Shown here: positions 3,056-53,580 of the stretch, piece after piece | Position numbering within the stretch: position 1 is the first letter of the stretch | How the letters are laid out: every line of letters begins with the position of its first letter | NCBI GenBank assembly: GCA_964594545.1 | Contig: CAZQNB010000002.1 | Span: 19,993-83,992, forward strand | DNA length: 64,000 nucleotides | From: an uncultured bacterium | GTDB lineage: Bacteria; Chlamydiota; Chlamydiia; Chlamydiales; SM23-39 | Reading direction: 5' to 3' | Made by a program: the position numbers and the translations under genes | Notes under the pieces: model-generated | What the model saw: the letters and a program-made list of their open reading frames with translations, nothing else | What the model was told of the DNA's origin: nothing | Databases searched by the model: none

Positions 3056-4935
3056 ATGGGAGATGCAATCTGGGTTGGGATGTTTTTGAGCGTAGGAGTT
3101 ACTTTTTTCGCCTGTGTATAATCCCTATTTATGGGATCGAGATGCCGAATGTCAACAGGAACATAGGAAATATCGGGTTCATCCTTTGTCGGATTGTAGG
3201 TGGCGATCGTCGTTTTAAGCCAGTTCTCATCGTCCCTCTTCGGAAATTCCGGTTTATAGTGAGAGCCCCTAAATTCATTGCGAAGCAGCGCCCCCTTCGT
3301 GATCACAAGTGCAATTTCAAGCATCGCTTTGAATTGATGAGCGAAAGCATATGTTTGGTTGAGTTGCAAACCCTTGTCATCCAATGAGATGTGTTTGTAT
3401 CTTTCTTTGATTTCCTTGATTTTCTCAAGGGTCTTCTGAAGATCGGGGTTATCCCTTTTTACCGTGACGAATCGAACCATCCAGTCGGAGAGCTCGTCGT
3501 GGAGTTTGTGGACATTTTCCGGGCCTGTTCTATGGAGGAGTTCTTTTTGGATATCTTCTTCGATGCGGAGCGCGTTTTGGAATAGACTCTCCGGGACTTC
3601 TTTTGTTTTTAGTAAGTCAATGTATCTGGGGACTTCATTGCCGGTGATGAGGCCGCCAAAAATGCAAGAGAGGAGGGAGTTGGCTCCGAGGCGATTGGCC
3701 CCGTGGTAGAGATAATCGGATTCACCCACATTAAAACAGCCGCGCAAATTCGTCATTTGTCTAAAGCGATCTAATCGATCCGGGTCATCAGCAGCCGGCC
3801 AGTCGACCCAGGCGCCTCCCATTGTGTAGTGGACGGCGGGAAAAATTTTCATCGGCTTTTTGCGGGGATCTACACCTGTGAATTTTTGGTAGATGTCGAG
3901 AATCGATGCGAGTTTCCGATGTTTTTCCGGCGGAAGATGGGAGACATCGAGGTGGACTTGCATTTGTCCATCGATTCCAAGGCCAAGCTCACACACTCTT
4001 AAAACTTCTCTCGATCCGATATCGCGCGGCACGAGATTGCCAAATGAAGGGTACATCTCTTCAAGGAAAAACCACGGCTCTCCTGTTTTTCCGCACGAAC
4101 GCATAGTCCCATCGGGAAAGAGGATTTGTTTATCTGAATTGCCATAGACCCAGATTCTTCCCCCTTCGCCGCGGGATGCTTCAGAAATCAGGCGCAGTTT
4201 ATCGGGGCCCGGAATGGCAGTTGGATGGATTTGAATGAATTCACCGTTGGCGTATTTCATCCCTTGGCAATAGAGCCTACCGTTAGCGGCGCCTGTGCAG
4301 AACGTAGAGTTCGTTGATTTTTTGTAGATGAGGCCAAGGCCGCCTGTTGCGATGACAACAGCGTCGCTTTTGATGGCCTGAAGAGAAAGATCGAAAAGAT
4401 CGTGCATGACAATCCCACGAGCGATTCCCTCATCATCTAAAATAAGGCGTAAAAATTCATGGTGTTCAAATTTTTCGACAAGCCCTTTGACTTCATAGCG
4501 CCGCACCTGTTCATCCAGAGCATAGAGGAGTTGTTGCCCCGTGGAAGATCCTGCAAAGGCGGTTCGATCGTAAAGGGTCCCTCCAAATCTGCGAAAGTCG
4601 ATGTTTCCTTCTTTCGTTCGATTGAATGGGCAGCCAAATTTGTCGAGCATCCGCAAAATCGCAGGGCCTGCCATACACATTTCTAAGATGGGGGGTTGAT
4701 CGCCTAAAAAGTCGCCCCCTTTGATCGTGTCGTAGGCGTGGATGAGGGGAGAGTCGCCTTCGCCTTTTAAGTTGACTGCGACATTAATGCCCCCTTGCGC
4801 GCAGACAGAGTGGGATCTCCTCACCTTCGTGACGGAGATGAGTTTTACAGAGCACCCTTTTTCAGCAAGTTTCATCGTAGCGGATAGTCCCGCAAGACCG
4901 CCTCCGACAACAATGACCTCTTTTTTTTGCGCCAT
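3052..4935 (-). CDS. sdhA: succinate dehydrogenase flavoprotein subunit
   Basis: N-terminal VVGGGLAGL dinucleotide fold, HSVCAQGGIN FAD-attachment region and 627 aa length. Lies between sdhC and sdhB. Confidence 0.95.
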   Translation of the reverse strand: MAQKKEVIVVGGGLAGLSATMKLAEKGCSVKLISVTKVRRSHSVCAQGGINVAVNLKGEGDSPLIHAYDTIKGGDFLGDQPPILEMCMAGPAILRMLDKFGCPFNRTKEGNIDFRRFGGTLYDRTAFAGSSTGQQLLYALDEQVRRYEVKGLVEKFEHHEFLRLILDDEGIARGIVMHDLFDLSLQAIKSDAVVIATGGLGLIYKKSTNSTFCTGAANGRLYCQGMKYANGEFIQIHPTAIPGPDKLRLISEASRGEGGRIWVYGNSDKQILFPDGTMRSCGKTGEPWFFLEEMYPSFGNLVPRDIGSREVLRVCELGLGIDGQMQVHLDVSHLPPEKHRKLASILDIYQKFTGVDPRKKPMKIFPAVHYTMGGAWVDWPAADDPDRLDRFRQMTNLRGCFNVGESDYLYHGANRLGANSLLSCIFGGLITGNEVPRYIDLLKTKEVPESLFQNALRIEEDIQKELLHRTGPENVHKLHDELSDWMVRFVTVKRDNPDLQKTLEKIKEIKERYKHISLDDKGLQLNQTYAFAHQFKAMLEIALVITKGALLRNEFRGSHYKPEFPKRDDENWLKTTIATYNPTKDEPDISYVPVDIRHLDPINRDYTQAKKVTPTLKNIPTQIASPI

Positions 4936-8311: not shown

Positions 8312-8478
8312 TATACCGAAGATACCTCAAGAATCGGCTTTTAGGCGAGTTCAAAGCGCCGAAAATCGATTAAAAAAAAGGGAATTGTATTAGTCAATAC
8401 TATGCCCTTTTTTTTAATCGATTTATCGGCAGCTTTCAATCTCGCCTAAAAACCGATTCTTGAGGTATCTTCGGTATA
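8312..8478. repeat. A-type nested palindromic element, full copy (about 167 bp)
   Basis: tataccgaagatacctcaagaatcgg-cttttaggcgag-ttcaaagcgcc-...-ggcagctttcaa-tctcgcctaaaa-accgattcttgaggtatcttcggtata. It fills most of the divergent intergenic region 8292-8499. Confidence 0.9.
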
Positions 8479-9628: not shown

Positions 9629-10326
9629 AAGAAAAATTTCTTGCCCTTTCCCGTTTTAAGCAAATTGTATTGACTGTCATAGCGCTTCACTTTTTGGCGG
9701 TATTCGTTCTTTGCATACACCATTTTTTTTCGAGAGAAAAACCAAAGCCTAAAATGATTGTTCGAACGGTCTCTTTTCAGCCTAAAATTGTGGCTAAAGA
9801 AGTGTCTCGAGCGCCAAAACCCATCGCAAAATCTCCTCCTGCTAAGAAGGTTGAAAAAGCTCTACCGCAAACAAAACCAGCATCGCTGACACCGCCAAAA
9901 ATCGATTCTTCAAGTTGTTCCGGTATAAAATCTTCTCTCGTCCAAGAGATTAAAAAAGATCTGGCAACCCTGGAAAAGAAAACAGCTGTGGTTCCTAAAG
10001 TAGCGCTATCTTTGCCAAAAGAGCTCTTTCCGACCCAACCAAAAGAAGAAATAGAGATTCCCGATGCAGGCTATGGCGAAATCTTGGTCTCCTATTTGCA
10101 AAATTCTCTCGATCTTCCGGAAATGGGTGAGGTCAAAGTAGATCTTGAACTTGATCCGAGAGGGCAGATTGTCCGTTTTGAAATTCTCGAGGCAAAAAGT
10201 AAAAAAAATAGTGATTTTTTAAAAAAGCGGTTGCCTGAGCTTGCCCTCCCATGCTTTAATAACGATCGAAAATCAGATGAAACCGTTACATTTACGATCA
10301 CTTTTAAGAATCGTCCTCTTTCTTAA
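9625..10326 (+). CDS. TolA-like membrane-anchored protein with Pro/Lys-rich linker
   Basis: GTG 9625 overlaps the tolR stop. Has an N-terminal TM (IVLTVIALHFLAVFVLCI), a PKPIAKSPPAKKVEKALPQTKPASLTPPK linker and a C-terminal domain. Lies between tolR and tolB. Confidence 0.55.
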   Translation: MKEKFLALSRFKQIVLTVIALHFLAVFVLCIHHFFSREKPKPKMIVRTVSFQPKIVAKEVSRAPKPIAKSPPAKKVEKALPQTKPASLTPPKIDSSSCSGIKSSLVQEIKKDLATLEKKTAVVPKVALSLPKELFPTQPKEEIEIPDAGYGEILVSYLQNSLDLPEMGEVKVDLELDPRGQIVRFEILEAKSKKNSDFLKKRLPELALPCFNNDRKSDETVTFTITFKNRPLS

Positions 10327-17555: not shown

Positions 17556-18152
17556 TCAAATTTTTTTTAGGGACAAGGTGATCAAACGGCCGAGATCATT
17601 TTCATCCTTGGCGTCTAATCTGGCCGCTTGAACCGCTTTTTGGGCCTCTAGCGGGTGGTAGCCTAGATTCATTAAGGCATTCACTGCATCTGCGTGGATC
17701 GTGTCTCCGGATGACGAGGCAAAGGGGACCCCTTTATCTTTTCTATGGAAGGTTTTGAGTTTATCGCGCATTTCTAAAACAAGCCGTTCTGCCGTTTTTT
17801 TCCCAATGCCCGGGATTTTGCTTAAGATCCGGATGTCAGCTGCAACAATTGCGTTTTGGAGCGCATTCATGTCCATGTGGCCAATGATCCCAATTGCGGT
17901 TTTTGGGCCAATGCCGGAAAGGGTGATGAGCACTTCAAAAAGATCCCGTTCTTGTTTTTCTAAAAAGGCATACAAAGTGTTTGAGTCTTCCCGAATGACC
18001 TGGGATAGATGAAGGTGCACGTTTGCATCAATTGAGGGAAGCTTTGTGTACGTATTGAGAGGGATGGTCAATCGATAGCCGATGCCGCCCACTTCAACAA
18101 CAGCTTTGAGGGGCTCTTTTTCTTTCAAAATACCTTTCATGGAGTCAAACAT
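17556..18152 (-). CDS. ruvA: Holliday junction branch migration complex subunit RuvA
   Basis: OB-fold N-terminus, HhH motifs (LSGIGPKTA, IPGIGKKTAERL) and a C-terminal domain III. Confidence 0.93.
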   Translation of the reverse strand: MFDSMKGILKEKEPLKAVVEVGGIGYRLTIPLNTYTKLPSIDANVHLHLSQVIREDSNTLYAFLEKQERDLFEVLITLSGIGPKTAIGIIGHMDMNALQNAIVAADIRILSKIPGIGKKTAERLVLEMRDKLKTFHRKDKGVPFASSSGDTIHADAVNALMNLGYHPLEAQKAVQAARLDAKDENDLGRLITLSLKKI

Positions 18153-18636
18153 AGGGTGTCTTCCTTTGGTGAGAACAACAAATAGCTAAAGCCAGCGCGT
18201 CAGCTGCATCTTCGGGCTCCGGCATAACAGGCAAGCGCAGGAGGGATTGAATCATCTTTTGTACCTGCAATTTGCTCGCTCCGCCAAAGCCCACAACAGC
18301 CAGTTTTGCTTTTTTTGGGGCAAATTCATAGACCGGAATATTTTTTCTTGCGGCTGCGAGTAAAACCATTCCCTTGGCCATGCCGAGTTTAATCGCGCTT
18401 TGCGCATTTTTCAAGACGAATTGTGATTCTACAGCAATTTGCGTGGGCGCGTGTTTCTCAATTAACGTTTCAATGCTCTCGAATATGATTTTGTAGCGCT
18501 GTGCTAGAGGGAGATGTGGCGGGGGGCGGATGCAGCCATAATCGATGGGGATAATGGTCCCTTCCGTTGAAATAATCCCATAGCCGGTAATACGAGTTCC
18601 GGGGTCGATACCGAGAATGATTTCTTTTTTGTGCAT
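18145..18636 (-). CDS. ruvC: crossover junction endodeoxyribonuclease RuvC
   Basis: ILGIDPG start and catalytic acidic residues including ...DAADALA. Overlaps the ruvA start by 8 nt. Confidence 0.93.
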   Translation of the reverse strand: MHKKEIILGIDPGTRITGYGIISTEGTIIPIDYGCIRPPPHLPLAQRYKIIFESIETLIEKHAPTQIAVESQFVLKNAQSAIKLGMAKGMVLLAAARKNIPVYEFAPKKAKLAVVGFGGASKLQVQKMIQSLLRLPVMPEPEDAADALALAICCSHQRKTPYV

Positions 18637-19698: not shown

Positions 19699-21445
19699 GA
19701 AAATCCGACGATTGTTATTGCCAAATCCTTTTGATTCGCAATTGAAAAAATGCGTAAAACATGGCGGGAAAAAGGTTCTTCTCGGGTGGAACCGGGGGCT
19801 TGGGGATATTGCGCTTGGCCTTTACGCGATGATTCAAAGGATTCGAGAAAAAGTGCCGGGTGCGGAAATTACGTTTTTGACTCGTCCCAATTTGCAAGAC
19901 GGATTTTCTCTCTTGCGCGGGATTGATGTTTTGATCGATCCCGATCTTAAAAGAGGACAGTGTTGGGACGCTTGCTTTTCCTTAAAAAAACTGGGGATCG
20001 ATCCAAAATCATTTGATCTCATCATTGGAAAGCCGAGTCCCACCGATTGGGTTCCTTGGCAACGGGGGAAGGTAGTGCCTCTTTTAGAATGGGACGCCTC
20101 TTATGAAAATCTATGGCAGAAATTTGGGCTTGAAGAGGGGTTTACCTATATCGGCGTTCAGGTTGTCGTTGAAACAAATTATGGCCCTTGGCGCAATTGG
20201 CCGATTGTTCATTGGAAGCTTCTATTTGCCCGATTAGAAAAACTAAAAAACGTAAAAATCATCTTGCTCGGCGGCGATGAAAAGACCGAATTTCAAGGCG
20301 AGAATCTGATCGACCTTAGAGGGAAAACAACGCTCTTTGAACTTCTATCGATTGCGACGAAATGCTCTCATATGATTCTTCCGGATTCAGGCATTTTATC
20401 GATGGTCTATTATCTCAATTACCCCTTTCCGATCCATCTCATCAGCCTTTGGGGCGATCCAAATCATGGGATTTTAAAACAGGCCGTAAACTCTCCAAAT
20501 CCCCGGTTAAAGCACACCCCGTTGATCGGAGCTCTTCGCGATTTATCAACCGTGACAGTAGATCTAATGATGAATACCCTTTTTCCGGTAAAACCACTTA
20601 AAACATGCCTAAAATCTTCAGAGGTGATTCCGGGCACTCTTGCCCATGTGGGGTGTATTTTATTAGCCGGCGGTCAAGGGACAAGACTTAAAGTTAAAGG
20701 GCCAAAAGGGACTTTTGCAATCCAGGGGAAAAGTCTTTTTGAGTGGGTCGTTGAAAAAGCTCCCAAGGAAAATTTTCCCATTGCCATCATGACATCTCCC
20801 TTAAATCATGAAGAGACGGTTTCGTTTTTTAAGAGAAATGAGAATTTTGGAAGAGAGATCTATTTTTTTTCGCAGGAGATGCTCCCGTTTTTAGATCAGA
20901 AAAAACGGCCCTTGAAAACTCTTGCGCCGAATGGAAACGGCTCGGTGTTTCGCTCATTTTTGCAAAGCGGGCTGTATGATGTTTTCCGAAAAAAGGGGAT
21001 CGATTTATTGACGATTGTCCCTGTTGAAAATCCACTTGCTGATATGGCTGATCTTTCTTTAATTGGGTATGCAAGAGAGACAAAATCGGATGTAACCATC
21101 AAATGCGTGAAGAGAGAATCGCAAGAGGAATCGATGGGAGCCATTGTTGAAAGAGAAGGGAGAATTGAAATTGTGGAGTATATCAATCGAGATCGTTGCC
21201 TTGAGTATGTGTATTCAAATACCGGAATGATGGCGATCTCTATGCCCTTTTTTCATGAGATGTCAAAGCAAGAGCTTCCGCTGCATTGGGTAGAAAAACC
21301 GATTCCGGGAACGAAGAAATTAGGCTGGAAGGGGGAGAAATTCATTTTTGATGCTTTTTGTTTTGGGAATGTGTCAGCTCTTTGCTATGACAAAGGGAGC
21401 TGTTACGCGCCAATCAAATCTATTTATACCATTTATGAGAAATAA
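19691..21445 (+). CDS. fusion protein: GT9-like glycosyltransferase domain plus eukaryotic-type UDP-sugar pyrophosphorylase (UDPGP/UAP) domain
   Basis: N-terminal half has GWNRGLGDIALGLY, WRNWP and LPDSGILSM (GT9-like). C-terminal half has LLAGGQGTRL..GPKG, MTSPLNHEET, PNGNG and GEKFIFD (UDPGP family). Confidence 0.8.
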   Translation: MFKKIRRLLLPNPFDSQLKKCVKHGGKKVLLGWNRGLGDIALGLYAMIQRIREKVPGAEITFLTRPNLQDGFSLLRGIDVLIDPDLKRGQCWDACFSLKKLGIDPKSFDLIIGKPSPTDWVPWQRGKVVPLLEWDASYENLWQKFGLEEGFTYIGVQVVVETNYGPWRNWPIVHWKLLFARLEKLKNVKIILLGGDEKTEFQGENLIDLRGKTTLFELLSIATKCSHMILPDSGILSMVYYLNYPFPIHLISLWGDPNHGILKQAVNSPNPRLKHTPLIGALRDLSTVTVDLMMNTLFPVKPLKTCLKSSEVIPGTLAHVGCILLAGGQGTRLKVKGPKGTFAIQGKSLFEWVVEKAPKENFPIAIMTSPLNHEETVSFFKRNENFGREIYFFSQEMLPFLDQKKRPLKTLAPNGNGSVFRSFLQSGLYDVFRKKGIDLLTIVPVENPLADMADLSLIGYARETKSDVTIKCVKRESQEESMGAIVEREGRIEIVEYINRDRCLEYVYSNTGMMAISMPFFHEMSKQELPLHWVEKPIPGTKKLGWKGEKFIFDAFCFGNVSALCYDKGSCYAPIKSIYTIYEK

Positions 21446-21589
21446 CTTTGAGTTGTAGCGTCGGATAGTGCGTCAGATTTGGACGATCTTTTCGAAGCTG
21501 ATATTCTTGAATATCAGCGAGAAAGGATCGTTCAGAGAGGACGTGCTAGACGATGCTACAACGCAAATCTATTTTTCATAAGTGGTATT
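21425..21589. repeat. B-type palindromic element (about 165 bp), degenerate right arm
   Basis: tataccatttatgagaaataactttgagttgtagcgtcggatagtgcgtca...gacgtgctagacgatgctacaacgcaaatct..cataagtggtat. The left end overlaps the last 21 nt of the preceding CDS. Confidence 0.85.
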
Positions 21590-21645
21590 AATTGCCCATA
21601 AAATCTTTCTTGGATTGGATCGTCTCGTGTGTTAGACTATAGGTC

Positions 21646-22707: not shown

Positions 22708-22877
22708 TAATACCAATCGCAGCAAATAAATTCATATTTAAGCCGCGTGAAAGCTGTCGATAAATCGAAGATCGTAAGTGGCATTGTATTAGGTCAATAC
22801 TATGCCCTTTTTTTAATTGATTTATCGGCAGCTTTCAATCCCGTCCAAACGCCGATTCTTCAAGTTGTTTCGGTATA
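22708..22877. repeat. A-type palindromic element, chimeric copy (left and right arms from different subfamilies)
   Basis: The left arm (taataccaatcgcagcaaataaattcatatttaagccgcg) is not complementary to the right arm (cccgtccaaacgccgattcttcaagttgtttcggtata). The shared core tgaaagctgtcgataaatcga...tgatttatcggcagctttcaa is intact. Confidence 0.85.
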
Positions 22878-22983: not shown

Positions 22984-24165
22984 ATGAGTTCTGTTGTACG
23001 CGTAGACACAGATGGAGTCCCTACATATCGCCCGCCTGCTGTAAATCCTCAATATATCCCGACTGCTGTAAATCCTCAATATATCCCGACTGCTGTAAAT
23101 CCTCAATATATCCCGACTGCCCCACAACACTTTGGAAGGACGCAGGTACAGCTTCAGAGACTGGCTCTCAAAACTCTTGCCGGTGTAGGCGCTTTGGCAG
23201 GAACCTTTGCTGCTATAAAGGGGGATGCAGAAAGAATATTCACTGTCCCGCTTTTATTGGGTTTTGTGGGGGGATGCTTATATGTGGCATCGAATGTAAA
23301 AGACTACGAGGATCCAGACGAACTTCGCGCTATGCAAGAGAATGCGGCAATACAGACTTTTCCTGCCATTATAAAGGAGCATAGCTTAGAAAATACTGTA
23401 AAATATCTTCTGAATGCGGATGTAGTAAAACTCAAATTTAAGGAAGCGTATGGTTTAAGTAAACTTTCTAGACTTCTACAGATCTATCCTTTCGCAATCA
23501 TCCGAAAATATAAATTGGCAGATGACGCTCTCTTGCAAAGATGTTTTTTTAATCAATTGAGAGAGGCCTCTGTTTGGGAGCTTGAAGAATCTTTTGTGAC
23601 AATGTGTAGAATAGAGGGTGTTATTTCTGAGGTTGGAAGCAAGGCGCTGATAGATTTTATTTGTCAAGTAAAGAGCTGTGAGACCAACTACTCAGCCCGT
23701 TGCGCAGATCTGGATACAAAATATCCAGGGCGAACATCAAAACTTCTGAAAGAACTTGATCTGAAAGCAAAAGCACTTCCCGGTGAAGCAGAAAAAATGA
23801 AAAATACGATCCTTCAAAACGGCTATCGGGCAGCAAACGAACAAGCAGAGGTTCGATTAGTCCTAGATACTTTCTTGACGGGTAAATCGGCAATGGAATG
23901 TTTGGGTAATTACGTTGATACTACTGTGCAAGGGAGTGTTGTAGCTCAAGCTACTGCTGCAAAAACTGAACAACAATGGCTTGAGCAACAGTTGACAGCG
24001 ATCGAAACGAAGCGACAGCACATCCTCGAAAAGAACTTTGGGGGTGAGCAAGAAACTTTATATCAGCAGGCCCTTAAGATTCTTGAGTCCGATCGTCGGG
24101 GAACATTATGGCAGTTACAAAGTAAGTTTTACGAGAAAATCTTTGAGCTCTTCGGGGATATTTAG
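22984..24165 (+). CDS. Inc-like protein: N-terminal AVNPQYIPT x3 repeat, bilobed hydrophobic domain, coiled-coil C-terminus
   Basis: AGGAAGG SD before the ATG. Two hydrophobic lobes, LKTLAGVGALAGTFAAI and TVPLLLGFVGGCLYVASNV, are separated by 8 polar residues. Confidence 0.75.
   Translation: MSSVVRVDTDGVPTYRPPAVNPQYIPTAVNPQYIPTAVNPQYIPTAPQHFGRTQVQLQRLALKTLAGVGALAGTFAAIKGDAERIFTVPLLLGFVGGCLYVASNVKDYEDPDELRAMQENAAIQTFPAIIKEHSLENTVKYLLNADVVKLKFKEAYGLSKLSRLLQIYPFAIIRKYKLADDALLQRCFFNQLREASVWELEESFVTMCRIEGVISEVGSKALIDFICQVKSCETNYSARCADLDTKYPGRTSKLLKELDLKAKALPGEAEKMKNTILQNGYRAANEQAEVRLVLDTFLTGKSAMECLGNYVDTTVQGSVVAQATAAKTEQQWLEQQLTAIETKRQHILEKNFGGEQETLYQQALKILESDRRGTLWQLQSKFYEKIFELFGDI
23038..23118 (+). 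repeat. perfect 27-bp tandem repeat x3 inside a CDS
   Basis: gctgtaaatcctcaatatatcccgact repeated three times, in frame (AVNPQYIPT). Confidence 0.95.
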
Positions 24166-27799: not shown

Positions 27800-27964
27800 A
27801 ATACCATTTATCATAAATAACGTTGAGTTGTAGCGTCGGATAGTGCGTCAGATTTGAAGGATCGTTTCGAAACTGATATTCTTGAATATCAGTGAGAAAG
27901 GATCGTTCAAACATGACGCACTATCCGACGCTACAACTCAATGTTGTTTTTGATAGATGGTATA
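27800..27964. repeat. B-type palindromic element (about 165 bp), near-perfect copy
   Basis: aataccatttatcataaataacgttgagttgtagcgtcggatagtgcgtca...tgacgcactatccgacgctacaactcaatgttgtttttgatagatggtata. Confidence 0.9.
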
Positions 27965-28078
27965 AATGAACAGGATCCGCTTCGCTTGCAGGATCGCCAT
28001 GAAGCATGGCGGCAGGATTTTTTCCTGCCGCGAACGAAGTGAGCGATCCTGCCAGCGAAGCGGATCCTGTTCATTTAT
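27961..28078. repeat. C-type palindromic element (about 118 bp), abuts the B-type copy via a shared TATA
   Basis: tataaatgaacaggatccgcttcgcttgcaggatcgc...gcgatcctgccagcgaagcggatcctgttcatttat with an inner hairpin ggcggcagga-tttttt-cctgccgc. Confidence 0.9.
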
Positions 28079-34823: not shown

Positions 34824-34889
34824 TAATACCAAACGCAGGAAATAGATTCATATTTAAGCTGCGTGAAAGCTGTCGACAAATCGAAGATC
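34824..34889. repeat. A-type palindromic element, left half only
   Basis: taataccaaacgcaggaaatagattcatatttaagctgcgtgaaagctgtcgacaaatcgaagatc closely matches the left half of the copy at 22708. No right half follows. Confidence 0.8.
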
Positions 34890-36706: not shown

Positions 36707-37306
36707 TCAAAGTATCGCAGCTAAACGGAGGCGTCTTTCTTCTAAAGTCTCTCCTTCGTATGTCCAATAGATCGGTCCCTGTACTTGCGCAGCGTTTCCC
36801 CCGAATTGAGTGAGAACTTCTGACGCCGCAGCGCTTAGGCTTGTGAGCTGTCCTTTAAATTCGATTGATTTGTCGTCTACAACTTTGCAAACGATCTGTT
36901 CATCTCGTATAAAACGCAATTCTGCGCCTACAGGAATCTGCGCAAATGAAAAACGGAAAGGTGGGCGGCGCTCTACAAATTCTTTCATTTCTTGAGTCAC
37001 TTCCGGGTTGGCCTGAGGAGTTGCATCTTCGATGGCAACTAGTTCCAAAATTGTCTTTACTTTCTCCTTGTCAATGCGGAAAAATTCTTTTCCCGTCGGC
37101 ACTCGATGATCGCCGAATGCAAAATGAAGTTTTCTTTCGACCATTTTCCCGTTATTTACAACTGCTGCATAAAAACACTCAAACGGGTAAGGAACGCCAG
37201 TGGTATATAGTTCTTTTCTGCGCTGTTCCACGTCAGTCGTTGTGATTCCGATTTTGACAAGGCCAGGCATGCATTCATTGGTGAAAATATAGATAATTTC
37301 TTTCAT
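36707..37306 (-). CDS. GIY-YIG / T5orf172-type nuclease-domain protein with C-terminal extension
   Basis: IYIFTNECMPGLVKIGITTTDVEQRRKELYTTGVPYPFE is typical of T5orf172/MUG113-type GIY-YIG domains. The C-terminal SLSAAASEVL...GPIYWTYEGETL resembles the DUF4357-like tail. Confidence 0.7.
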   Translation of the reverse strand: MKEIIYIFTNECMPGLVKIGITTTDVEQRRKELYTTGVPYPFECFYAAVVNNGKMVERKLHFAFGDHRVPTGKEFFRIDKEKVKTILELVAIEDATPQANPEVTQEMKEFVERRPPFRFSFAQIPVGAELRFIRDEQIVCKVVDDKSIEFKGQLTSLSAAASEVLTQFGGNAAQVQGPIYWTYEGETLEERRLRLAAIL

Positions 37307-38472: not shown

Positions 38473-38636
38473 TATACCGAAACAACCTCAAAAGTTGGTT
38501 TTTAAGCAGCGTGAAAGCTGCCGAATTTTCTCGATCGCAAGTGCGTTTGTATTTCTAATACTAAGGCACTTGCGATCGAGGAAATTCGGCGCTTTGACGC
38601 GCTTAAAAAATCAGCTTTTGAGGTTGTTTGGGTATA
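38473..38636. repeat. A-type nested palindromic element, full copy, opposite core polarity
   Basis: tataccgaaacaacctcaaaagttgg-tttttaagcagcg-tgaaagctgcc-...-ggcgctttgac-gcgcttaaaaaa-tcagcttttgaggttgtttgggtata. A solo arm fragment follows at 38633-38660. Confidence 0.9.
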
Positions 38637-38680: not shown

Positions 38681-41600
38681 ATGAAATTTTTGAAAGCATT
38701 TTTTGTTTTACTTTTCGTTTTGTGTGGTTTTTTTCTACCAAATTGTACCCAAGCAAAACCGTCAGGATTTCAGCTGAGATCTGGCGATGCAAAACCGGTT
38801 ATCCAAAACTCTTCGGACTCTTTCGTTATTGAGAGCTCGAAAAATTCTGTGATTGATTGGGATAGTTTTTCAATTCATACAGGGGAATGTGTCCGCTTTG
38901 AGCAATTGGAAAACACATATGTGCTCAATCGCGTTACAGGCAATGAGGAGAGTGCCATTTTGGGCTCTTTACGCTCGAATGGAGCTGTTTATCTTGTGAA
39001 TCCAAACGGTATTTTGATTGGGAAAGAAGCGTATATTGATACGGCCGGATTTATTGCTTCGACGTTGGATATTTTAGGTTCAGATTTATCTTCGCTTCAG
39101 TTCCTTGGCGATAGCGAAAAAGGGGTTGTCAATCAAGGGAGAATTCATTGCGCAGCGGGGGATGTTTTTCTGATTGGAAAAACAGTCGAAAATAGTGGAA
39201 CAATTGATGCTCCTCAAGGACGGCAGGGCCTTCTCTCCGGTTTTGATGTTCTGATCTTTCCCGAAAAGGCTCCGCAAGTGCGAATTCGGGTAGAAGAATC
39301 GGTCGACGCAGATATTTTAAAAGAAAACCCATATGCACTCGCTATTTGTCATCGTGGGAAAGTTCTGGCTAAAGAAGTGTATCTGATCGCGGAAAATGGC
39401 ATTACAGAAGTCACGGGAACCATTGTCGCTATGAATGGCGAACAAGGAGGGCATGTCCGGGTTCTTGGCGACGAAGTTCTCCTCTTAAATTCAGCTAAGA
39501 TCGATGTATCGGGGAAACAAGGCGGAGGAGAGGCTCTTTTCGGGGGGGATTACCAAGGGAAAAATCCGGAGATCAAAAATGCAAAACATCTTTTCGTTGA
39601 AAAAGATGTTGTTATCAAAGCAAGCGCAAAAGAGGCGGGCAATGGCGGGCGCGTGATTTTCTGGAGCGATGAGGCCACAATTTTTTATGGGTTGGTGGAT
39701 AACAGAGGCGGCGAAGTTCGTGGCGATGGAGGGTTCACCGAGGTGTCCGGTGGGTATTTAAATTTTCAAGGGTTTGTCGATGGGAGCTCTCCGTTTGGAA
39801 GCGCAGGAACGCTCCTGCTCGATCCAACAAATATTACAATTTCGACAGGCGGGGATGCAAACGGATCTTTTTCTGCGGGTATTTGGACTTCAACAGCCTC
39901 TACTGCGACCATCAACACGACCACGCTTCAAACGCAATTAGGATCGAATAATGTCACAATTAATACATCGGGACCTTTTGGGAGTACAGGAACAATTGCA
40001 ATTACTCACCCGATCTCGTGGTCTTCGGCCAATAACTTAACTCTTATTGCCGATGCCTCCATTGCGGTAAGTTCCGGAGCTGCTATTACCTGTTCTTCTA
40101 CAGGTGGAGTGCAGATGACGGCCAAAGGAACCGGCGCTACGGGAACAGGGATATCGTTGGGGTTAAATGCACATATATCTACAACTTCCGGCAATATCAT
40201 TTTGAACGGTACTTCGGGTACGGGGACAAGTGGGTCGGGAATTACCTTCTTAGGAACGATTTCCTCTACAACAGGAACGGTATCTCTTACAGGGACATGT
40301 AGGTCAACTTCTACTGCCCCTATTGGGGTTTCTTTAGGAAATTCTTCTGCCGTAAGAACAACCGGTGGAGGATCTATTGCAATTATAGGAACAGGTTCTG
40401 ATAAAACCGCCGCTAACAGTGCTCACGGTGTTTCGATTGCTGCAGGGGCAGTTGTTAATACAGCAACAGGCAATGGCCCTATTTCGATTACAGGTACTGC
40501 GCGAGCCGGTAATGCCTCTTGTGGGGTGCGTATTTCCAGCGTCACTCCAGGATTGATTGTTAGTGGAACAGGGACGATCACAATCGGCGGAACGAGCAGC
40601 GCAACAACTGCTGGATCTCACGGAGTTTCTATTGCGGCGGCTTGGACGCCCGCAACGACAGGTTTAGTTACTTTATCAGGAACGGGGGGTCCTTCCGGCG
40701 CAAGTCATGGGGTCAATATTGCAGGTACATATACAGGTGCAGGAGATATTGTTTTTGCTAATTGTGTAGGAGGTTCAGGCGGCGGTAATGGAATTAACGT
40801 GGCGGCTGTCTTTACAACAACAGGGACAATTACTGCGACAACAAATATTCGAGGAAACGGGAGCGGAGGGGTTGGGTTTTCCTCCGGCAATACGTTTTCT
40901 ACATCGGGGATAAACAAATCGATTTCGATCACAGCAAGCGCCGGAGGGACCTTAGGCGCTTGTCATGGAATTTCTCTGACAGCGGGCACTTTATCCACAA
41001 CAGGCGGCGGCTCGATCACACTGAATGGAACGGGGGGGGCGAGTAATTTAGCCTCTCACGGAGTGAATATTACAGGGGGAATTCCGTCAGTTTCCACAAC
41101 AACCGGGAATGGCAATATTTCGATCACAGGGACTGCGCAGGGCAGCGCTGCAAGCTTTGGTCTAAATATCGGAGCGAATATCGTAAGCACATCAGGAACC
41201 ATTACAGTGAGCGGAACGAGCAGCGCGACTTTGGGAGGATCTCATGGAGTTTCTATTGCATATTGGACGCCCGCAACGACAGGTTTAGTCACTTTATCAG
41301 GAATGGGGGGACCTACTGGTGCTAGTCATGGGCTTCATATTGGCGGTCAATATATTGGTGTTGGAAATATTGTTTTCATCAATTGTGTAGGCGGAGCAGG
41401 CGGCGGTAATGGAATTAACGTGGGAGCAGGTTTTGTAACGACAGGGTCAATCACCGCAACAACAAACATTCAAGGAAACGGCAGCGGAGGGATTGGGTTT
41501 TTCTGTAACAATTCGTTTTTGTCAACAGCGACACCTCAGCTTGTTTCGATCACAGCGAGCGCCACAGGGAATACGGGCGCTTGTCATGGGATTTCCTTGA

Positions 41601-43150
41601 CAGGAGCCTGCTCTTTAAGAGGCTCAGCGATCACACTCAACGGAACAGGGGGACCGAGTGATTTACTCTCTCATGGAGTCAATATTACAGGCGGAGCTTC
41701 GACAGTGTCCACGACAGTATCAGGCAACGGCCCCATTTCAATTACAGGGACTGCTGCAGGCAGTGCTGCAAGTTTTGGTGTAAATATGGCAGGCAGTGCC
41801 GCGAACTTTGTTGAGAGCGGATCTGGAACCATTACAGTGAGTGGAATAAGCAGCTCTACAGCGGCTGGATCTCACGGAGTTTCTATTTCCTCTGCTTGGG
41901 CGCCGGCAACGACAGGTTTAGTCTCTTTATCGGGAACCGGGGGAGGGACAGGAGCGAGTTGCGGTATTGCAATTGGCGCAAACGTAACCTTTAGCGGCGC
42001 AATTACTATTAACGGCACGGAAGGAGGCGGAGAGGGTTCCTTTGGCAACTCTTTTGGGGGGAATGTAACAACTTCCGCAGGAACTATTGAGGTATTTCAA
42101 AGTTCTACTTTAGCGGCTGCAACAATAATTGATTCGACAAATGGAGGGAGTTTTCCTGGAGGCGCTCTGATTGATTTTTCAGGAGGGACTGCCACGATCG
42201 ATGGCGCGCAAAGTTTGACCTTGGTAGCTGGAACGTCAACAATAAGTTTGGAGGGAGCCGTCGGAGGAACTTCTCCATTAACGAATCTTACATTTACAAG
42301 CGCCAATCTTATTGAGTTGGGAAGCAATATCACTGTAAGCGGCGCAAATCCCCTTACTTTTCCGTTTGCAGTAAGTATTACCGGAACATCAACGATTAAT
42401 ACGAATAATGCGGCTCTCTCCTTTAGTTCAACGATTAATGGCGCGCAAAGTTTGACTCTGAATTCCGGGAGTGCATCTACGACCCTTTCAACAGCAGTTG
42501 GAGGCATCACCGCACTGAATTCTTTTAGCGCAACCTCTGCGACAATTGCGCAAGGGTCAAGTGTAACAACGATAGGGCCGATTACTTACACAGGTTCAAC
42601 AAGCATCAATATCCAAGGTGATTTAACGACAACTGGCGGCGCAATCAGTATGATAGGGCCGGTTTCTTTAACGACATCGCCTTTAAGTTTTGATACAACA
42701 AATGGATCTGCAGACGGCGCTTCTATTTACTTTTCGTCAACGCTCAATGGAGGCTCTAATGTTGCCTTCAGAGCGGGAACTTCGGGAGTGGTCACGTTCA
42801 CCGGTGTTGTCGGAGGGGAGACTCCTCTGGGAACAGTCGTGATTACGAATGCGGCATTAAGTCTTGGAGCGGTCAATATTGGAGGAAATATTACGGCAAA
42901 TTCCTTTGTGCTGTCCTCAGCGTCTCCTGTAACTCTCCTAGGATCTAGCATAATTGATACAAGTGCAGCTGCCGGGTTGGGGATTGTTTTTGGTTCTACA
43001 ATTGACGGAACAACCCCCGGGGGGCAATCTCTTACTTTAATAGCCAATGGAGCGGATACAATCACTCTTCCGGGTAATATTGGGACAAATGTAAGATTAG
43101 GAACATTGACAATTGAAGGGGGGACTGTCGAGGTTCTGATCGGTCCTTAA
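38681..43150 (+). CDS. large two-partner-secretion (TpsA/FhaB-like) exoprotein with beta-helical Gly/Ser/Thr-rich repeats
   Basis: Signal peptide. TPS (haemagglutination activity) domain: SVIDWDSFSIHTGECVRF, VLNRVTG, GAVYLVNPNGILIG. Then about 1300 aa of repeats carrying recurring (S/A/C)HG(V/I)x(I/L) units. Confidence 0.85.
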   Translation: MKFLKAFFVLLFVLCGFFLPNCTQAKPSGFQLRSGDAKPVIQNSSDSFVIESSKNSVIDWDSFSIHTGECVRFEQLENTYVLNRVTGNEESAILGSLRSNGAVYLVNPNGILIGKEAYIDTAGFIASTLDILGSDLSSLQFLGDSEKGVVNQGRIHCAAGDVFLIGKTVENSGTIDAPQGRQGLLSGFDVLIFPEKAPQVRIRVEESVDADILKENPYALAICHRGKVLAKEVYLIAENGITEVTGTIVAMNGEQGGHVRVLGDEVLLLNSAKIDVSGKQGGGEALFGGDYQGKNPEIKNAKHLFVEKDVVIKASAKEAGNGGRVIFWSDEATIFYGLVDNRGGEVRGDGGFTEVSGGYLNFQGFVDGSSPFGSAGTLLLDPTNITISTGGDANGSFSAGIWTSTASTATINTTTLQTQLGSNNVTINTSGPFGSTGTIAITHPISWSSANNLTLIADASIAVSSGAAITCSSTGGVQMTAKGTGATGTGISLGLNAHISTTSGNIILNGTSGTGTSGSGITFLGTISSTTGTVSLTGTCRSTSTAPIGVSLGNSSAVRTTGGGSIAIIGTGSDKTAANSAHGVSIAAGAVVNTATGNGPISITGTARAGNASCGVRISSVTPGLIVSGTGTITIGGTSSATTAGSHGVSIAAAWTPATTGLVTLSGTGGPSGASHGVNIAGTYTGAGDIVFANCVGGSGGGNGINVAAVFTTTGTITATTNIRGNGSGGVGFSSGNTFSTSGINKSISITASAGGTLGACHGISLTAGTLSTTGGGSITLNGTGGASNLASHGVNITGGIPSVSTTTGNGNISITGTAQGSAASFGLNIGANIVSTSGTITVSGTSSATLGGSHGVSIAYWTPATTGLVTLSGMGGPTGASHGLHIGGQYIGVGNIVFINCVGGAGGGNGINVGAGFVTTGSITATTNIQGNGSGGIGFFCNNSFLSTATPQLVSITASATGNTGACHGISLTGACSLRGSAITLNGTGGPSDLLSHGVNITGGASTVSTTVSGNGPISITGTAAGSAASFGVNMAGSAANFVESGSGTITVSGISSSTAAGSHGVSISSAWAPATTGLVSLSGTGGGTGASCGIAIGANVTFSGAITINGTEGGGEGSFGNSFGGNVTTSAGTIEVFQSSTLAAATIIDSTNGGSFPGGALIDFSGGTATIDGAQSLTLVAGTSTISLEGAVGGTSPLTNLTFTSANLIELGSNITVSGANPLTFPFAVSITGTSTINTNNAALSFSSTINGAQSLTLNSGSASTTLSTAVGGITALNSFSATSATIAQGSSVTTIGPITYTGSTSINIQGDLTTTGGAISMIGPVSLTTSPLSFDTTNGSADGASIYFSSTLNGGSNVAFRAGTSGVVTFTGVVGGETPLGTVVITNAALSLGAVNIGGNITANSFVLSSASPVTLLGSSIIDTSAAAGLGIVFGSTIDGTTPGGQSLTLIANGADTITLPGNIGTNVRLGTLTIEGGTVEVLIGP
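40469..42060 (+). repeat. about 2.5 tandem copies of a 618-636-bp (about 208-aa) module inside the TpsA-like gene
   Basis: Module starts at 40469 (GNGPISITGTARAG), 41105 (GNGNISITGTAQGS) and 41723 (GNGPISITGTAAGS). The same internal order ...SHGVSIA..TGLVTLSG..SHGVNI..GGGNGINV.. is seen in each. Confidence 0.85.
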
Positions 43151-43235: not shown

Positions 43236-43316
43236 TATACCGTTCGTAATTGAACAATCGACGTTTGGACGGGTTCAAAGCGCCCAAACGCCGATTCTTC
43301 AATCACGAGCGGTATA
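43236..43316. repeat. A-type palindromic element, short form (81 bp)
   Basis: tataccgttcgtaattgaacaatcgacgtttggacggg-ttcaaagcg-cccaaacgccgattcttcaatcacgagcggtata. Preceded by a mini-hairpin tagtcgattaaatttaatcgacta at 43212-43235. Confidence 0.88.
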
Positions 43317-44887: not shown

Positions 44888-45055
44888 TATACCGCTCGTG
44901 ATTGAAGACTCTGCGTTTGGGCGGGATTGAAAGCTGCCGATAAATCGAAGATCGTAAGTGGCATTGTATTGACCTAATACAATGCCCTTTTTTTTAATTG
45001 ATTATCAAAGCTTTGAACCCGTCCAAACGCCGATTGTTCAATTACGAACGGTATA
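44888..45055. repeat. A-type nested palindromic element, full copy
   Basis: tataccgctcgtgattgaagactctgcgtttgggcggg-attgaaagctgccgataaatcga-...-cccgtccaaacgccgattgttcaattacgaacggtata. Preceded by a mini-palindrome tatactcgtgc..gcacgagtata at 44857-44890. Confidence 0.9.
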
Positions 45056-46425: not shown

Positions 46426-47268
46426 TCAATGCACACTTTGTATGAGGTGGGTCAAAGATTTAAACCACAGAAGAGCTTCTTTGCTCATCACCTGGATGAT
46501 TAACCCCCAAGCGGCAGCTAAGAGCGCAAGGCCGACCCAAGATTTCAGCGGGATGCCGAGGAACACGATTTGCACTTGCGGAGCTAAACGGTTAGCAATC
46601 CCTAAAAACATATCCATCAATAAAATTCCAATCAGCGAGGGCGCTGCAAGCTGGATGCAGAGGTTGAACATTTTTTGCAGCGTCTTCACCATCGTCACCC
46701 AAAACGGGTTCTTTAGATGGAAAAGGTCCGGGCTGATGAGACCGTCGACGGGGATCATTTCGTAGGATGTCGCAACGCCATTGAAAAAATAAATCGGCCC
46801 TCCAAGGGAAAAAAAGAGGGCGATCAGGACTAAGTTAAAGAGAATCCCAATCGAGCCTGTTTGCGATTTTGTGGTCGGATCTGTCACCTGAAGAGAGGAG
46901 GCTCCTCGCTGAAAATCGATTAAGCTTCCCGACATTTGCGCTATGTAGAAGGGAACAGACGCGAGAAATCCAATCACCGCCCCGATGATGAGCTCTTTGA
47001 TGAGAAGCCCCACAAAAGGCATGGCAAAAGGGATGCTTCCGTGGACATGCATGAGATTTTGAGGAAGGAAAATGGCTGTGAGTGAAACGCCAAACATGAC
47101 GCGGATGGTCATGGGAACGTTTTGCGAGCCTAAAAATGGGGCGAGCGCAAGGATGGGGAGCAGTCTTGCCATTGTGAGAAAAAAAACGGAAAGAACGGTG
47201 TAGGGATCAAGATGGGGAAGGTCTAGAAGGAGCGAAAGATACCCGTCTAATGCAGCAGCTGAGTTCAT
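46426..47268 (-). CDS. sctT: type III secretion export apparatus protein SctT (YscT/FliR family)
   Basis: Polytopic 280-aa protein directly downstream of sctS with a 4-nt overlap. Confidence 0.88.
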   Translation of the reverse strand: MNSAAALDGYLSLLLDLPHLDPYTVLSVFFLTMARLLPILALAPFLGSQNVPMTIRVMFGVSLTAIFLPQNLMHVHGSIPFAMPFVGLLIKELIIGAVIGFLASVPFYIAQMSGSLIDFQRGASSLQVTDPTTKSQTGSIGILFNLVLIALFFSLGGPIYFFNGVATSYEMIPVDGLISPDLFHLKNPFWVTMVKTLQKMFNLCIQLAAPSLIGILLMDMFLGIANRLAPQVQIVFLGIPLKSWVGLALLAAAWGLIIQVMSKEALLWFKSLTHLIQSVH

Positions 47269-47537
47269 ACAGCGCTATATTTTTGGATCGCGGCAAATAT
47301 TGTATTTGTATACTGGAGCACTTGCGCGCCTAACCATCCGCTCATAAAAATAATTGTAAACACGACCGCAAATAACTTGACTGTGAAGGAAAGTGTTTGC
47401 TCTTGAATTTGAGTGGCCGCTTGAAAAATCGCAACCAAAAGCCCCAAAATCATACTCACAATGATCGGAGGTCCTGATAAAATCAGGATCAGGATCAGCG
47501 CTTGGTAGGTCAGTTCATAGATTTCATTTGCAAACAT
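47265..47537 (-). CDS. sctS: type III secretion export apparatus protein SctS (YscS/FliQ family)
   Basis: MFANEIYELTYQALILILILSGPPI...AATQIQEQTLSF aligns with YscS from its own N-terminus. The 14 upstream codons in the ORF track are repeat-encoded. Confidence 0.9.
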   Translation of the reverse strand: MFANEIYELTYQALILILILSGPPIIVSMILGLLVAIFQAATQIQEQTLSFTVKLFAVVFTIIFMSGWLGAQVLQYTNTIFAAIQKYSAV

Positions 47538-47703
47538 ATACCGACGATACCTCAATAATTGGTTTTTAGGCGAGTTCAAAGCGCCTATTTTCCAGTTTCG
47601 GAAGAGGGTTCATATTGAAACAAATATGGACCCTCTTCCGAAGCTGAAAAATAGGCAGCTTTCAATCTCGCCTAAAAGCCAATTCTTGAGGTATCTTCGG
47701 TAT
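47537..47703. repeat. A-type nested palindromic element, full copy, filling the sctR-sctS intergenic gap
   Basis: tataccgacgatacctcaataattgg-tttttaggcgag-ttcaaagcgcc-...-ggcagctttcaa-tctcgcctaaaa-gccaattcttgaggtatcttcggtat. Confidence 0.9.
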
Positions 47704-47711
47704 CAACCTTT

Positions 47712-48467
47712 TTATTTAAACGAGATGGCAAGTCCCTGGATTAATACAGTCCACCCATCAACGAGAACCAGCAGGAGTAGTTTGATCGGAAGGGCAATGG
47801 TGAGCGGAGAGAGCATCATCATCCCCATCGCAAGGAGAATGTTGGAAACGACAAGGTCGATCACGAAAAAGGGGAGATAAATGAGGACGCCAATTTCAAA
47901 AGCGGTTTTCAGCTGGCTTGTGATGAATGACGGAATCAAAATAATAAAATCATTTGCTTTGAGCTGCGACTTATACGGCTCCGGGAAAAGGCGGTAGGCG
48001 AGCTTATAGAAACTGGCCATGTTTTTTGTCGTACAGTTGCGCTCTAAAAATCCTTTGAGAGGCTCTTTTGCTTTGTCTACCACGTTAACGATGAACGTTG
48101 CGGCCTCTGACGAAATCACCGTTTGGGGCGCTTGCGTTCGAATCGTCTCTTCAGACGCTTTATACATCGCAAGTCCCGTTGGGAACATCACATAAATGGT
48201 GATGAGAAGCGCAATCCCGTTTAACACTTGGTTTGGTGGCGTTTGTTGGACGCCAAGCGCTTGTCTAAGCAAAGAGAGGACAACCACGATCTTCATGAAA
48301 GAGGTGAGGAGCATGATCGCGAAGGGCAAAAGGGAAAGCCCTGCGAGGACGGCAAGTTTTGTCACCATGCTCGGATTTAAACTGCCGTCTGTGGCTCCCG
48401 CAATCGCTGTTTGCGCCATCAAATGGCTTGTAGAAAAAAGGAGGAAAAAGAGGATGATGTATTTCAT
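47712..48467 (-). CDS. sctR: type III secretion export apparatus protein SctR (YscR/FliP family)
   Basis: FMKIVVVLSLLRQALGVQQTPPNQVLNGIALLITIYVM block typical of the FliP/YscR family. Confidence 0.92.
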   Translation of the reverse strand: MKYIILFFLLFSTSHLMAQTAIAGATDGSLNPSMVTKLAVLAGLSLLPFAIMLLTSFMKIVVVLSLLRQALGVQQTPPNQVLNGIALLITIYVMFPTGLAMYKASEETIRTQAPQTVISSEAATFIVNVVDKAKEPLKGFLERNCTTKNMASFYKLAYRLFPEPYKSQLKANDFIILIPSFITSQLKTAFEIGVLIYLPFFVIDLVVSNILLAMGMMMLSPLTIALPIKLLLLVLVDGWTVLIQGLAISFK

Positions 48468-50930: not shown

Positions 50931-51040
50931 ATGAATGAACAGGATCCGCTTCGCTTGCAGGATCGCTCACTTCGTTCGCGGCAGGAAAAAAGAAAGAATC
51001 CATCCTGCCGCCATGCTTCATGGCGATCCTGTTCATTTTT
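50931..51040. repeat. C-type palindromic element, copy with truncated right arm and expanded loop
   Basis: atgaatgaacaggatccgcttcgcttgcaggatcgc-tcacttcgttcgcggcagg...cctgccgccatgcttcatg-gcgatcctgttcatt. It lacks the ccagcgaagcggatcctg segment present at 28040-28067. Confidence 0.85.
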
Positions 51041-51043
51041 AAT

Positions 51044-51118
51044 TATACCGTTCGTAATTGAACAATCGGCAGCTTTGAATCCCGTCCAAACGCCGATTCT
51101 TCAATCACGAGCGGTATA
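51044..51118. repeat. A-type palindromic element, short form (75 bp)
   Basis: tataccgttcgtaattgaacaatcg-gcagctttgaa-tcccgtccaaacgccgattcttcaatcacgagcggtata. Confidence 0.88.
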
Positions 51119-53241: not shown

Positions 53242-53295
53242 AATGCGGGCATTGTAGCAGAAAAATTTAGAGGATTCAACACCGTTTTTTGGAAG

Positions 53296-53455
53296 CTCGA
53301 CTTTGTACATTTTTCGGTAGCGAGTTTTGCAAGATTTTGATCTACAATCGGTTACAGCTCCCTTCAGTCGGCTTGAACACGCCATTGAAGGGAGCTGTAA
53401 CCGATTGTAGATCAAAAGATTGTGAAAATCGCTCCGAAAAATGTACAAAGTCGAG
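53296..53455. mobile_element. D-type 160-bp palindromic element flanked by a 5-bp direct repeat GGAAG (MITE-like)
   Basis: ctcgactttgtacatttttcgg...ccgaaaaatgtacaaagtcgag. GGAAG is found at 53291-53295 and 53456-53460 and is not part of the palindrome. Confidence 0.8.
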
Positions 53456-53491
53456 GGAAGGGGAGAAAAATAGTAACCGCTCACAAAGCCT

Positions 53492-53535
53492 GAGGTAGGC
53501 GCCCCGAAACGGGGCCCCGCCCACCTCATTTTTAT
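53492..53535 (+). terminator. GC-rich imperfect hairpin plus T-run (intrinsic-terminator-like) with no upstream plus-strand gene
   Basis: gaggtaggcgccccg-aaa-cggggccccgcccacctc followed by atttttat. Confidence 0.4.
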
Positions 53536-53580
53536 GGGCACGTGTGAAAAATAAAATTTTTACAAATCGTAAATAATATT

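Follow-up and report, generated by a model that had tools for sequence, protein, structure and literature searches.

Recurrent apex inversions in a family of whole-length palindromic repeats from an environmental Chlamydiota genome

Introduction

In plastid non-coding DNA, the small loops that separate short inverted repeats are inverted time and again, and such inversions lead alignments astray. Among bacterial repeats, the Correia elements of Neisseria duplicate a TA target and carry their repeats in alpha and beta variants. In yeast genes (PMC8604942) and in rRNA and microRNA hairpins (PMC8794818), inversion of the spacer together with homogenisation of the arms has been attributed to template switching.

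Here we analyse a repeat family in a 64-kb stretch of DNA from an uncultured Chlamydiota bacterium (contig CAZQNB010000002.1; the whole stretch of 64,000 nucleotides is called the window, and all positions refer to it unless a locus is named). A sequence-only reading of the window had taken two copies of this repeat for flip-flop isomers of a terminal hairpin loop, and we compare these and other copies after orienting them by their asymmetric markers.

Results

A multicopy family of palindromic elements

The repeats are MITE-like, non-coding elements of ∼170-200 bp that are palindromic over their full length and occur in an environmental Chlamydiota genome and its relatives. They are short and multicopy and have terminal inverted repeats, lengths range from 60 to 200 bp, and the window holds 11 copies or fragments. 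The reference Y-type element at 8312-8478 (plus strand) has the usual polarity, that is an a core, the apex TTGTATT-AGTC-AATACTA and a b* core, and its segment 8351-8438 folds at -33.4 kcal/mol (z = -11.9). Another Y-type element (63003-63171, plus strand) combines the usual core polarity with an inverted apex, TAGTATT-GAGTT-AATACAA, at 63077-63095, and the element at 38473-38636 (minus strand) likewise carries an apex inverted relative to its cores, TAGTATT-AGA-AATACAA in canonical orientation. The member at 47537-47704 (plus strand) has a different inner stem, with the apex TCATATT-GAAACA-AATATGG, and the same core-to-core spacing as the other members. A short member at 43236-43316 (plus strand), composed of terminal-repeat variant 1, an a core and terminal-repeat variant 2, served to set the polarity of the terminal-repeat variants. 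A truncated copy (34824-34889), copies or fragments at 51044-51118 and 63168-63227, a fragment at 9895-9927 and the two elements at 22708-22877 and 44888-45055, to which we return below, make up the remainder.

In most copies TACC...GGTA or ATACC...GGTAT is bordered by TA at each end, a putative target-site duplication for which no empty site was found; in one copy the flanks are TA/TC. At 63166-63174 two abutting members share TATA (…CGGTATACCG…), the bases shared by the tandem pair being 63168-63171, and this common TATA is a misfit with a simple duplication of TA at each insertion. Over the repeat, contig depth in run X1 exceeds that of unique sequence (14.6) by a factor of tens to hundreds, from which it follows that the family has many copies, tens being implied. 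Summed over contigs, the depth of the TAATACC-type terminus at 22710-22751 comes to ∼4000 in X1, where unique sequence has 14.6; this is far above the inner modules, and the terminus type may be common to other organisms in the sample.

The window is present in four wastewater metagenome runs and encodes type III secretion genes, an NTP/NDP-exchange-type transporter, a large PBP2 and, at 17556-18636, RuvA and RuvC; among its ORFs scanned with Pfam or NCBIfam there is no transposase, invertase, HUH Rep or Y1 transposase. An independent Logan contig (L001) has 11 differences from the window, none of them within the element at 47537-47704. Scanning genome contigs for the Y-arm pattern returned one related copy ('MAG: Chlamydiota bacterium') and one probable chance match, and a scan of viral contigs found nothing. 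A scan of metagenomes for the Z-arm pattern gave 52 loci, ∼40 of which are clear family members. The apex GATCG[CT]AAGTGGCATTGTATT...AATACTATGCCACTTGCGATC is near-identical in ∼40 JGI contigs from many metagenomes, with differing outer arms (loci L006-L057). Of these loci L026 alone is linked to Chlamydiota, through its PBP2 homologue, the protein of which is 60% identical to PBP2 of the window. At the Rfam gathering score only three tRNAs of the window pass and the elements match no family, and at E-value thresholds they give only sub-threshold chance matches to miRNA hairpin models. Nor did the literature searched describe a chlamydial MITE or palindromic repeat; it is thus the repeat family for which we found no description in either source, inversion of an apex being in itself a known kind of event.

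One hairpin with conserved asymmetric markers

A consensus built from the alignment of 15 distinct copies forms one hairpin of 76 pairs, with compensatory changes in 51 of the 76 and Watson-Crick pairing in 93% of cells. Mismatches of the G.T type (25) are about as frequent as those of the A.C type (26), which indicates the absence of strand bias, so that the constraint looks to act on DNA rather than on RNA; selection at the RNA level as the main constraint was rejected on these counts. Promoter-like sites were absent from the four elements scanned, and a terminator scan of four elements singled out only the hairpin at 44960-44986 as terminator-like (T8 tail), on the strand opposite the neighbouring genes.

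Several irregularities give the hairpin a polarity. The 'a' core TCAAAGCG of the left arm (TCAAA[AG]CG) faces the 'b*' core CAGCTTTCA of the right arm (CAG[CT]TTTCA), and together they leave a C.C mismatch and a one-base bulge. A sub-core, GAAAATC, lies opposite GATAAATC; a T.T mismatch near the tip (TTGTATT / AATACTA), set two bases away from the inner stem, is referred to below as the stem marker; and the loop, being itself asymmetric, also serves as a marker of polarity. The spacing from core to core is 69-73 nt even where inner stems are unrelated (for example at 47576-47664).

Copies found by their apex alone, with no selection on the cores, are nearly all a...b*. The exceptions are the hybrid cores of L043 and L052 and the b/b* copies L015 and window 22708-22877. 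In L015 (1700-1800) b cores stand on both sides and the arms match perfectly, and the hybrids of L043 and L052 have the G of b without the bulge. To judge from these three loci, it looks as if single markers had been copied between arms. The strong conservation of the C.C mismatch, bulge and T.T mismatch is left unexplained by a purely mutational process, which counts against the origin of the inversions favoured below, and it hints at a function of a folded strand.

Two chimeras of the same inner modules

The pair of copies that had been read as loop isomers is formed by two hairpin apices. Apex 1 (22781-22805) consists of the stem arm GCATTGTATT (22781-22790), the loop AGGTC (22791-22795) and the stem arm AATACTATGC (22796-22805), with one T.T mismatch in the stem; folded as single-stranded DNA, 22748-22837 gives -25 kcal/mol (z = -10.3). 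Apex 2 (44961-44985) has the same left arm GCATTGTATT (44961-44970), the loop GACCT (44971-44975) and the right arm AATACAATGC (44976-44985), and its stem is perfect. As the sequence-only reading had noted, each loop is the exact reverse complement of the other, and 5 of 5 loop positions differ; in the 43 nt to the left of the loop, TGAAAGCTG[T/C]CGATAAATCGAAGATCGTAAGTGGCATTGTATT, the two copies differ at one position. The calculated chance of a random reverse-complement match is 4^-5, or ∼0.001 per pair of 5-nt loops, and the window contains only three comparable loop pairs; the reverse complementarity of this pair is not a chance pattern. An origin of the loop differences in coincidence or in independent point substitutions could appeal to the shortness of the loops and to pairs such as AGTC and GAGTT, which are only roughly reverse complementary, but it has to contend with an exact match at 5 of 5 differing positions within arms that differ at 1 of 43, and with two further loop pairs (GCATT/AATGC and TCT/AGA, see below) that flip along with the stem marker, and we regard it as hardly credible.

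The flanks had been described as identical in the two copies. This holds for the left arm and for the symmetric stretch CCCTTTTTTT(T)AATTGATT to the right of the loop, and fails for everything farther right. Beyond the symmetric stretch, the element at 22708-22877 continues as GATTTATCGGCAGCTTTCAATCCCG. This is b*, and reverse-complementing the outer part of the left arm of the element at 44888-45055 gives the same sequence, with 25 of 25 positions matching; the right side of that element reads GATTATCAAAGCTTTGAACCCG, an a*-like core followed by terminal-repeat variant 1. The right stem arms also differ in step with the loop, AATACTA going with AGGTC and AATACAA with GACCT. The T/A marker of the right arm, the asymmetric core and the terminal-repeat variant thus all invert together with the loop; the flank had looked identical because the symmetric part of Y reads alike in both orientations. 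A loop flipped within fixed flanks is not what this pair displays, since every polarity marker on the right side is flipped as well: loop orientation co-varies with the polarity of the element, the very pattern that the sequence-only reading had set against its own proposal.

The two flanks belong to different inner modules. The left flank, AGATCGTAAGTGG, is part of the 'Z' module, and the right flank, CCCTTTTTTT(T)AATTGATT, is part of the 'Y' module, which is found as a full palindrome at 8363-8424 and whose ordinary form in Logan contigs is a-core...AAAAAAAAGGGCATTGTATT-AGGTC-AATACTATGCCCTTTTTTTT...b*-core. The Z arm beside a b core amounts to ∼23 copy-equivalents by Logan contig depth, and in these contigs both modules occur as abundant ordinary elements of the host genome. 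The element at 22708-22877 is a composite of two head-to-head b halves, the only b...b* pair in the window. Its left half comprises the TAATACC-type terminus, the b core TGAAAGCTG and the Z arm AGATCGTAAGTGG, and is matched exactly by Logan contigs of ∼339 depth as opposed to 14.6 for unique sequence; its right half comprises the loop, the Y arm CCCTTTTTTTAATTGATT, the b* core CAGCTTTCA and a CGGTATA terminus, and from 22780 onwards is found exactly in Logan contigs of ordinary Y-type copies that have an a core on the left. By its cores and terminal repeats, the element at 44888-45055 is an ordinary a...b* element in minus orientation: as read, terminal-repeat variant 2 and a b core stand on the left, an a*-like core and variant 1 on the right, and this pairing agrees with the short member at 43236-43316, where variant 1 lies beside the a core. 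Its inner arms are chimeric, with the Z arm on the b side and the Y arm on the a side.

Read in this way, the pair is two different chimeras of the inner modules Y and Z, and the element at 44888-45055 reads as a canonically oriented a...b* element with the loop AGGTC in its usual orientation. In both copies the loop is normally oriented relative to the Y half and its core; the two have their Z arm attached to the palindromic tip in opposite registers.

The Logan contigs of the four runs X1-X4 lacked the exact junction words of 22770-22810 and 44957-44990, and contigs matched to the window at 80-100% similarity included neither alternative isomers nor junction-bridging contigs. We therefore weighed an artefact in which the assembler crossed between repeat copies inside the common palindromic tip, in either orientation. 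That both copies are chimeras of two high-copy modules, that these modules have only ∼21 identical bases in common at the tip, and that the bridging words are missing from the contigs would all suit such an error. However, words of only 24-31 bases are needed to bridge the junctions, well below usual assembly word sizes, and De Bruijn unitigs break at such branches rather than cross them; moreover, a 14x link that joins nodes of 90-340x should not survive the Logan clean-up, and these contigs document presence and not absence. Clean apex inversions also appear in independent JGI assemblies (L030 and L024), and those at 63077 and 38547 in the window need no chimeric join. We consider an artefact quite unlikely.

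The apex inverts as a unit of stem and loop

Copies were oriented by core polarity, stem marker and loop were then tabulated, and the ancestral state was judged by majority rule across copies. In most copies the apex is TTGTATT-loop-AATACTA, and in four (L030, L024 and window positions 38547 and 63077) it is TAGTATT-rc(loop)-AATACAA, where rc denotes the reverse complement. A tabulation by asymmetric cores had been proposed in the sequence-only reading as the check on loop flipping, and its yield is these four inverted apices, the ∼20 further metagenome rows being in the usual orientation. L030 has TAGTATT-AATGC-AATACAA where L020 and about ten others have GCATT, and L024 has TAGTATT-AGA-AATACAA where L026, L029 and L035 have TCT. 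The window copy at 38547 shows the same inverted apex, TAGTATT-AGA-AATACAA, compared to TTGTATT-TCT-AATACTA in L026, L029 and L035, and the copy at 63077 shows TAGTATT-GAGTT-AATACAA compared to TTGTATT-AGTC-AATACTA at 8385. Inversions of the apex relative to asymmetric outer markers are thus real and recurrent in the family.

In all four clear inversions the stem marker flips with the loop, and the inverted unit is accordingly stem plus loop rather than the loop alone. This modifies what had been said of the second pair (8385 and 63077), for which an inverted centre between cores of the same polarity had been claimed: the inversion is real, and the unit is again stem and loop. The two copies have the same core polarity, TTCAAAGCG...CAGCTTTCA, and a swapped stem marker (TTGTATT/AATACTA as opposed to TAGTATT/AATACAA), and their loops, AGTC and GAGTT, are only roughly reverse complements. 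L030 and L020 are near-identical otherwise; their outer arms are exact reverse complements while the orientation of the centre is kept, which places the breakpoints inside the perfect 14-nt GATCGCAAGTGGCA stem. With the marker in the same orientation, L034 has GACT and L052 has GACTT, the reverse complements of the window loops AGTC and AGGTC, and these 4-5 bases hint, weakly, at an older inversion of the loop only.

The orientations across copies are biased roughly 4:1 towards the usual state, a rough ratio in that several of the 'usual' rows represent the same locus in several samples. Six loci were seen in 2-3 samples (L008/L043/L054, L010/L018/L020, L017/L057, L032/L037, L052/L055 and L006/L023/L046), each with one isomer in the assembled consensus contigs, and among the loci present in several samples no orthologous locus with two orientation states was found.

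A site-specific invertase that flips a segment between inverted repeats would make the apex an inverton, a programmed DNA switch. The inverted segment is indeed flanked by inverted repeats, and reports of Correia elements inverting in Neisseria are reviewed in PMC10969869. Yet the window has no recombinase gene, the elements scanned have no promoter-like site, the breakpoints differ between cases and the inverted segments measure only 5 to ∼35 bp. Segments of 5 to ∼35 bp are too short for synapsis of flanking sites. We hold a programmed switch to be extremely improbable.

Alternatively, flip and flop forms could be generated when a folded single strand is moved or copied, by rolling-hairpin-like synthesis, hairpin resolution or a single-strand transposition intermediate. 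The architecture of the family lends itself to this explanation: the element folds from end to end into a single hairpin in which 51 pairs covary, its spacing stays constant at 69-73 nt despite unrelated inner sequences, the conserved mismatches and the bulge mark one strand, and the nested inversions occur at more than one depth of the stem. Against it, the elements are inserted between genes in the interior of the chromosome, most of them with TA on either side, as is expected of cut-and-paste MITEs; there is no Rep, HUH or Y1 transposase gene in the window; one orientation strongly predominates; the same locus assembled from 2-3 samples always has a single isomer; and the pair at 22708-22877 and 44888-45055 is explained without any flip. 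We therefore think that a folded intermediate is an unlikely source of the inversions. There is a similarly slim chance that the repeats represent an undescribed superfamily of whole-length hairpin elements in environmental Chlamydiota that is moved or copied through a folded single strand recognised by a protein. If so, the C.C mismatch, the bulge, the T.T mismatch and the 69-73-nt spacing would mark that folded strand, and the nested apex inversions and near-perfect arms would be by-products of the life cycle of the element instead of ordinary replication errors.

Other palindromes and the genes around the elements

A third pair, of C-type palindromes, had been cited for an inverted middle within fixed arms. 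Copy 1 (27962-28078) has 36-nt arms and a 45-nt middle, and copy 2 (50931-51036) is its reverse complement: the alignment scores 164.5 in reverse complement and 101 directly, the differences being an 18-bp deletion in an arm, an 11-bp central insertion and one base. The arms are without any other polarity marker. This case is an inversion of the whole element, and the one base on which the fixed orientation had been based cannot decide otherwise.

A second palindromic family has two copies (21426-21592 and 27801-27967) that are 85% alike with 68-nt arms; its termini (ATACCATTTATG...) resemble the L011 element, and the central loop has the same orientation in both copies. Directly downstream of PBP2, at 27801-28078, two unrelated palindromes lie back to back, and L026 carries an element of the first family (3290-3470) at the matching position; the site may be a hot spot of insertion. 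A 160-bp palindrome at 53296-53455, with arms of 56 and 22 nt, falls in the 5' part of the ORF 51649-53541, an ABC-F-type ATPase, upstream of its first ABC domain. This leaves two readings, an in-frame insertion of the palindrome or a start codon placed too far upstream in the gene call.

The element at 47537-47704 fills the gap between sctR (47712-48467) and sctS (47265-47537), which are expected to form a single type III secretion operon, and it is without the T-run present in Y-type copies. A 27-nt unit recurs in tandem, in three and a half copies (23020-23120), within the ORF 22984-24165, which has no Pfam or NCBIfam match. The 1489-aa protein encoded at 38681-43150 has a filamentous-haemagglutinin N-terminal domain, and three internal repeats of ∼621-630 bp in its gene are 75-81% alike. 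In a gene-poor stretch near tRNA genes and the truncated copy at 34824-34889, a small T5orf172/MUG113-domain protein is encoded at 36707-37306; this domain is often found in mobile DNA.

Discussion

Taken together, these results lead us to regard arm-to-arm template switching, or antiparallel recombination between copies, as the probable origin of both the apex inversions and the two chimeras. Because the segments between markers are self-complementary, pairing in the opposite register is open to a strand being copied and to a recombination partner alike. If replication switched template twice from arm to arm, the sequence between the switch points would be inverted and the arms would become more perfect, and an exchange with another copy aligned antiparallel would invert the same stretch. 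The apices at 63077 and 38547 and those of L030 and L024, in which stem marker and loop are inverted relative to both cores, could be such products. The elements at 22708-22877 and 44888-45055 may be a different product of the same self-complementarity: joining the Z arm AGATCGTAAGTGG at the tip to a Y module in one register would yield a normal a...b* element (44888-45055), and joining it in the opposite register would yield the head-to-head b/b* composite (22708-22877).

Several details of the copies are in keeping with this origin. The inverted loops AGGTC/GACCT, GCATT/AATGC and TCT/AGA are exact reverse complements of equal length bounded by inverted repeats, with stems of 10-14 or more nt. 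One double switch on the 22784 form predicts the 44964 form exactly, with the loop inverted, the right-arm T changed to A and the stem perfect. The arms appear homogenised as well: the stem at 44964 is perfect where that at 22784 has T.T, which is compatible with template switching and is not unique proof of it. Other traces of copying from arm to arm are the perfect stems of L017/L057, L025 and L040, the homogenised b/b* of L015, the hybrid cores of L043 and L052, and the compensatory changes in 51 of 76 pairs with 93% Watson-Crick cells and no strand bias. The lack of an invertase, transposase or HUH Rep among the window ORFs scanned also speaks for this origin. The product sequences would fit switching within an element and antiparallel conversion or crossover between copies equally well. 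We infer not only this mechanism but also that the events were rare and historical rather than ongoing.

Of the mechanisms that had been put forward for the loop, template switching is the one that fits best, whereas flip-flop of the parvovirus type finds no counterpart in elements that are internal and chromosomal, with no Rep-like gene in the window and with orientations biased across copies. The further claim, that these DNAs really adopt hairpin or cruciform form in vivo, does not follow from the inversions, since the products of template switching or recombination need no extruded cruciform. Consensus sequences by themselves would support neither ongoing flip-flop nor cruciforms in the living cell.

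The result reveals no new mechanism. It illustrates how a palindromic repeat can feign an 'inverted loop in identical flanks': where the flank is symmetric it reads alike both ways, so polarity has to be taken from asymmetric markers farther out. The family provides many natural replicates of apex inversion and arm homogenisation in an intracellular bacterial lineage, with nested markers that give the depth of each event, and its conserved mismatches deserve a look of their own.

Four known systems bear comparison with the family. The minute inversions of plastid DNA concern single-copy loci compared between species, unlike the paralogous repeat copies considered here. Akin to parvovirus flip/flop, a hairpin tip occurs in two reverse-complement orientations and the stem has conserved mismatches ('bubbles'). 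However, the chlamydial copies lie between housekeeping genes inside a 64-kb chromosomal stretch and not at the end of a linear replicon, no HUH nickase of the Rep/NS1 type was found among the window ORFs scanned (Pfam, NCBIfam), the orientations tallied across copies stand at roughly 4:1, where flip/flop would give about 1:1 at a single site, and the pair that prompted the analogy contains no flip.

With the Correia elements (CREE/NEMIS) the family has in common a size of ∼100-200 bp, many intergenic copies, long terminal inverted repeats in two variants that give polarity, and element inversion, as reported for the former (review PMC10969869). The likeness noted is one of architecture. For their part, the chlamydial elements form a palindrome from end to end, in which the apex hairpin and the mismatches are conserved, their host is a member of the Chlamydiota, and the copies scanned have no promoter-like sites.

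There is also a correspondence with quasipalindrome template switching of the Ripley type (PMC8604942, PMC8794818), in which likewise the spacer is swapped for its exact reverse complement with its length kept, mismatches of the arms are perfected in the same step (as from the 22784 form to the 44964 form), and events are recurrent and reversible with breakpoints anywhere in the matching stem. The chlamydial repeat differs from that system in being a multicopy, mobile-looking element, so that exchange between copies is an equally good source of the inversions, and in carrying several nested markers from which the depth of an inversion can be read.
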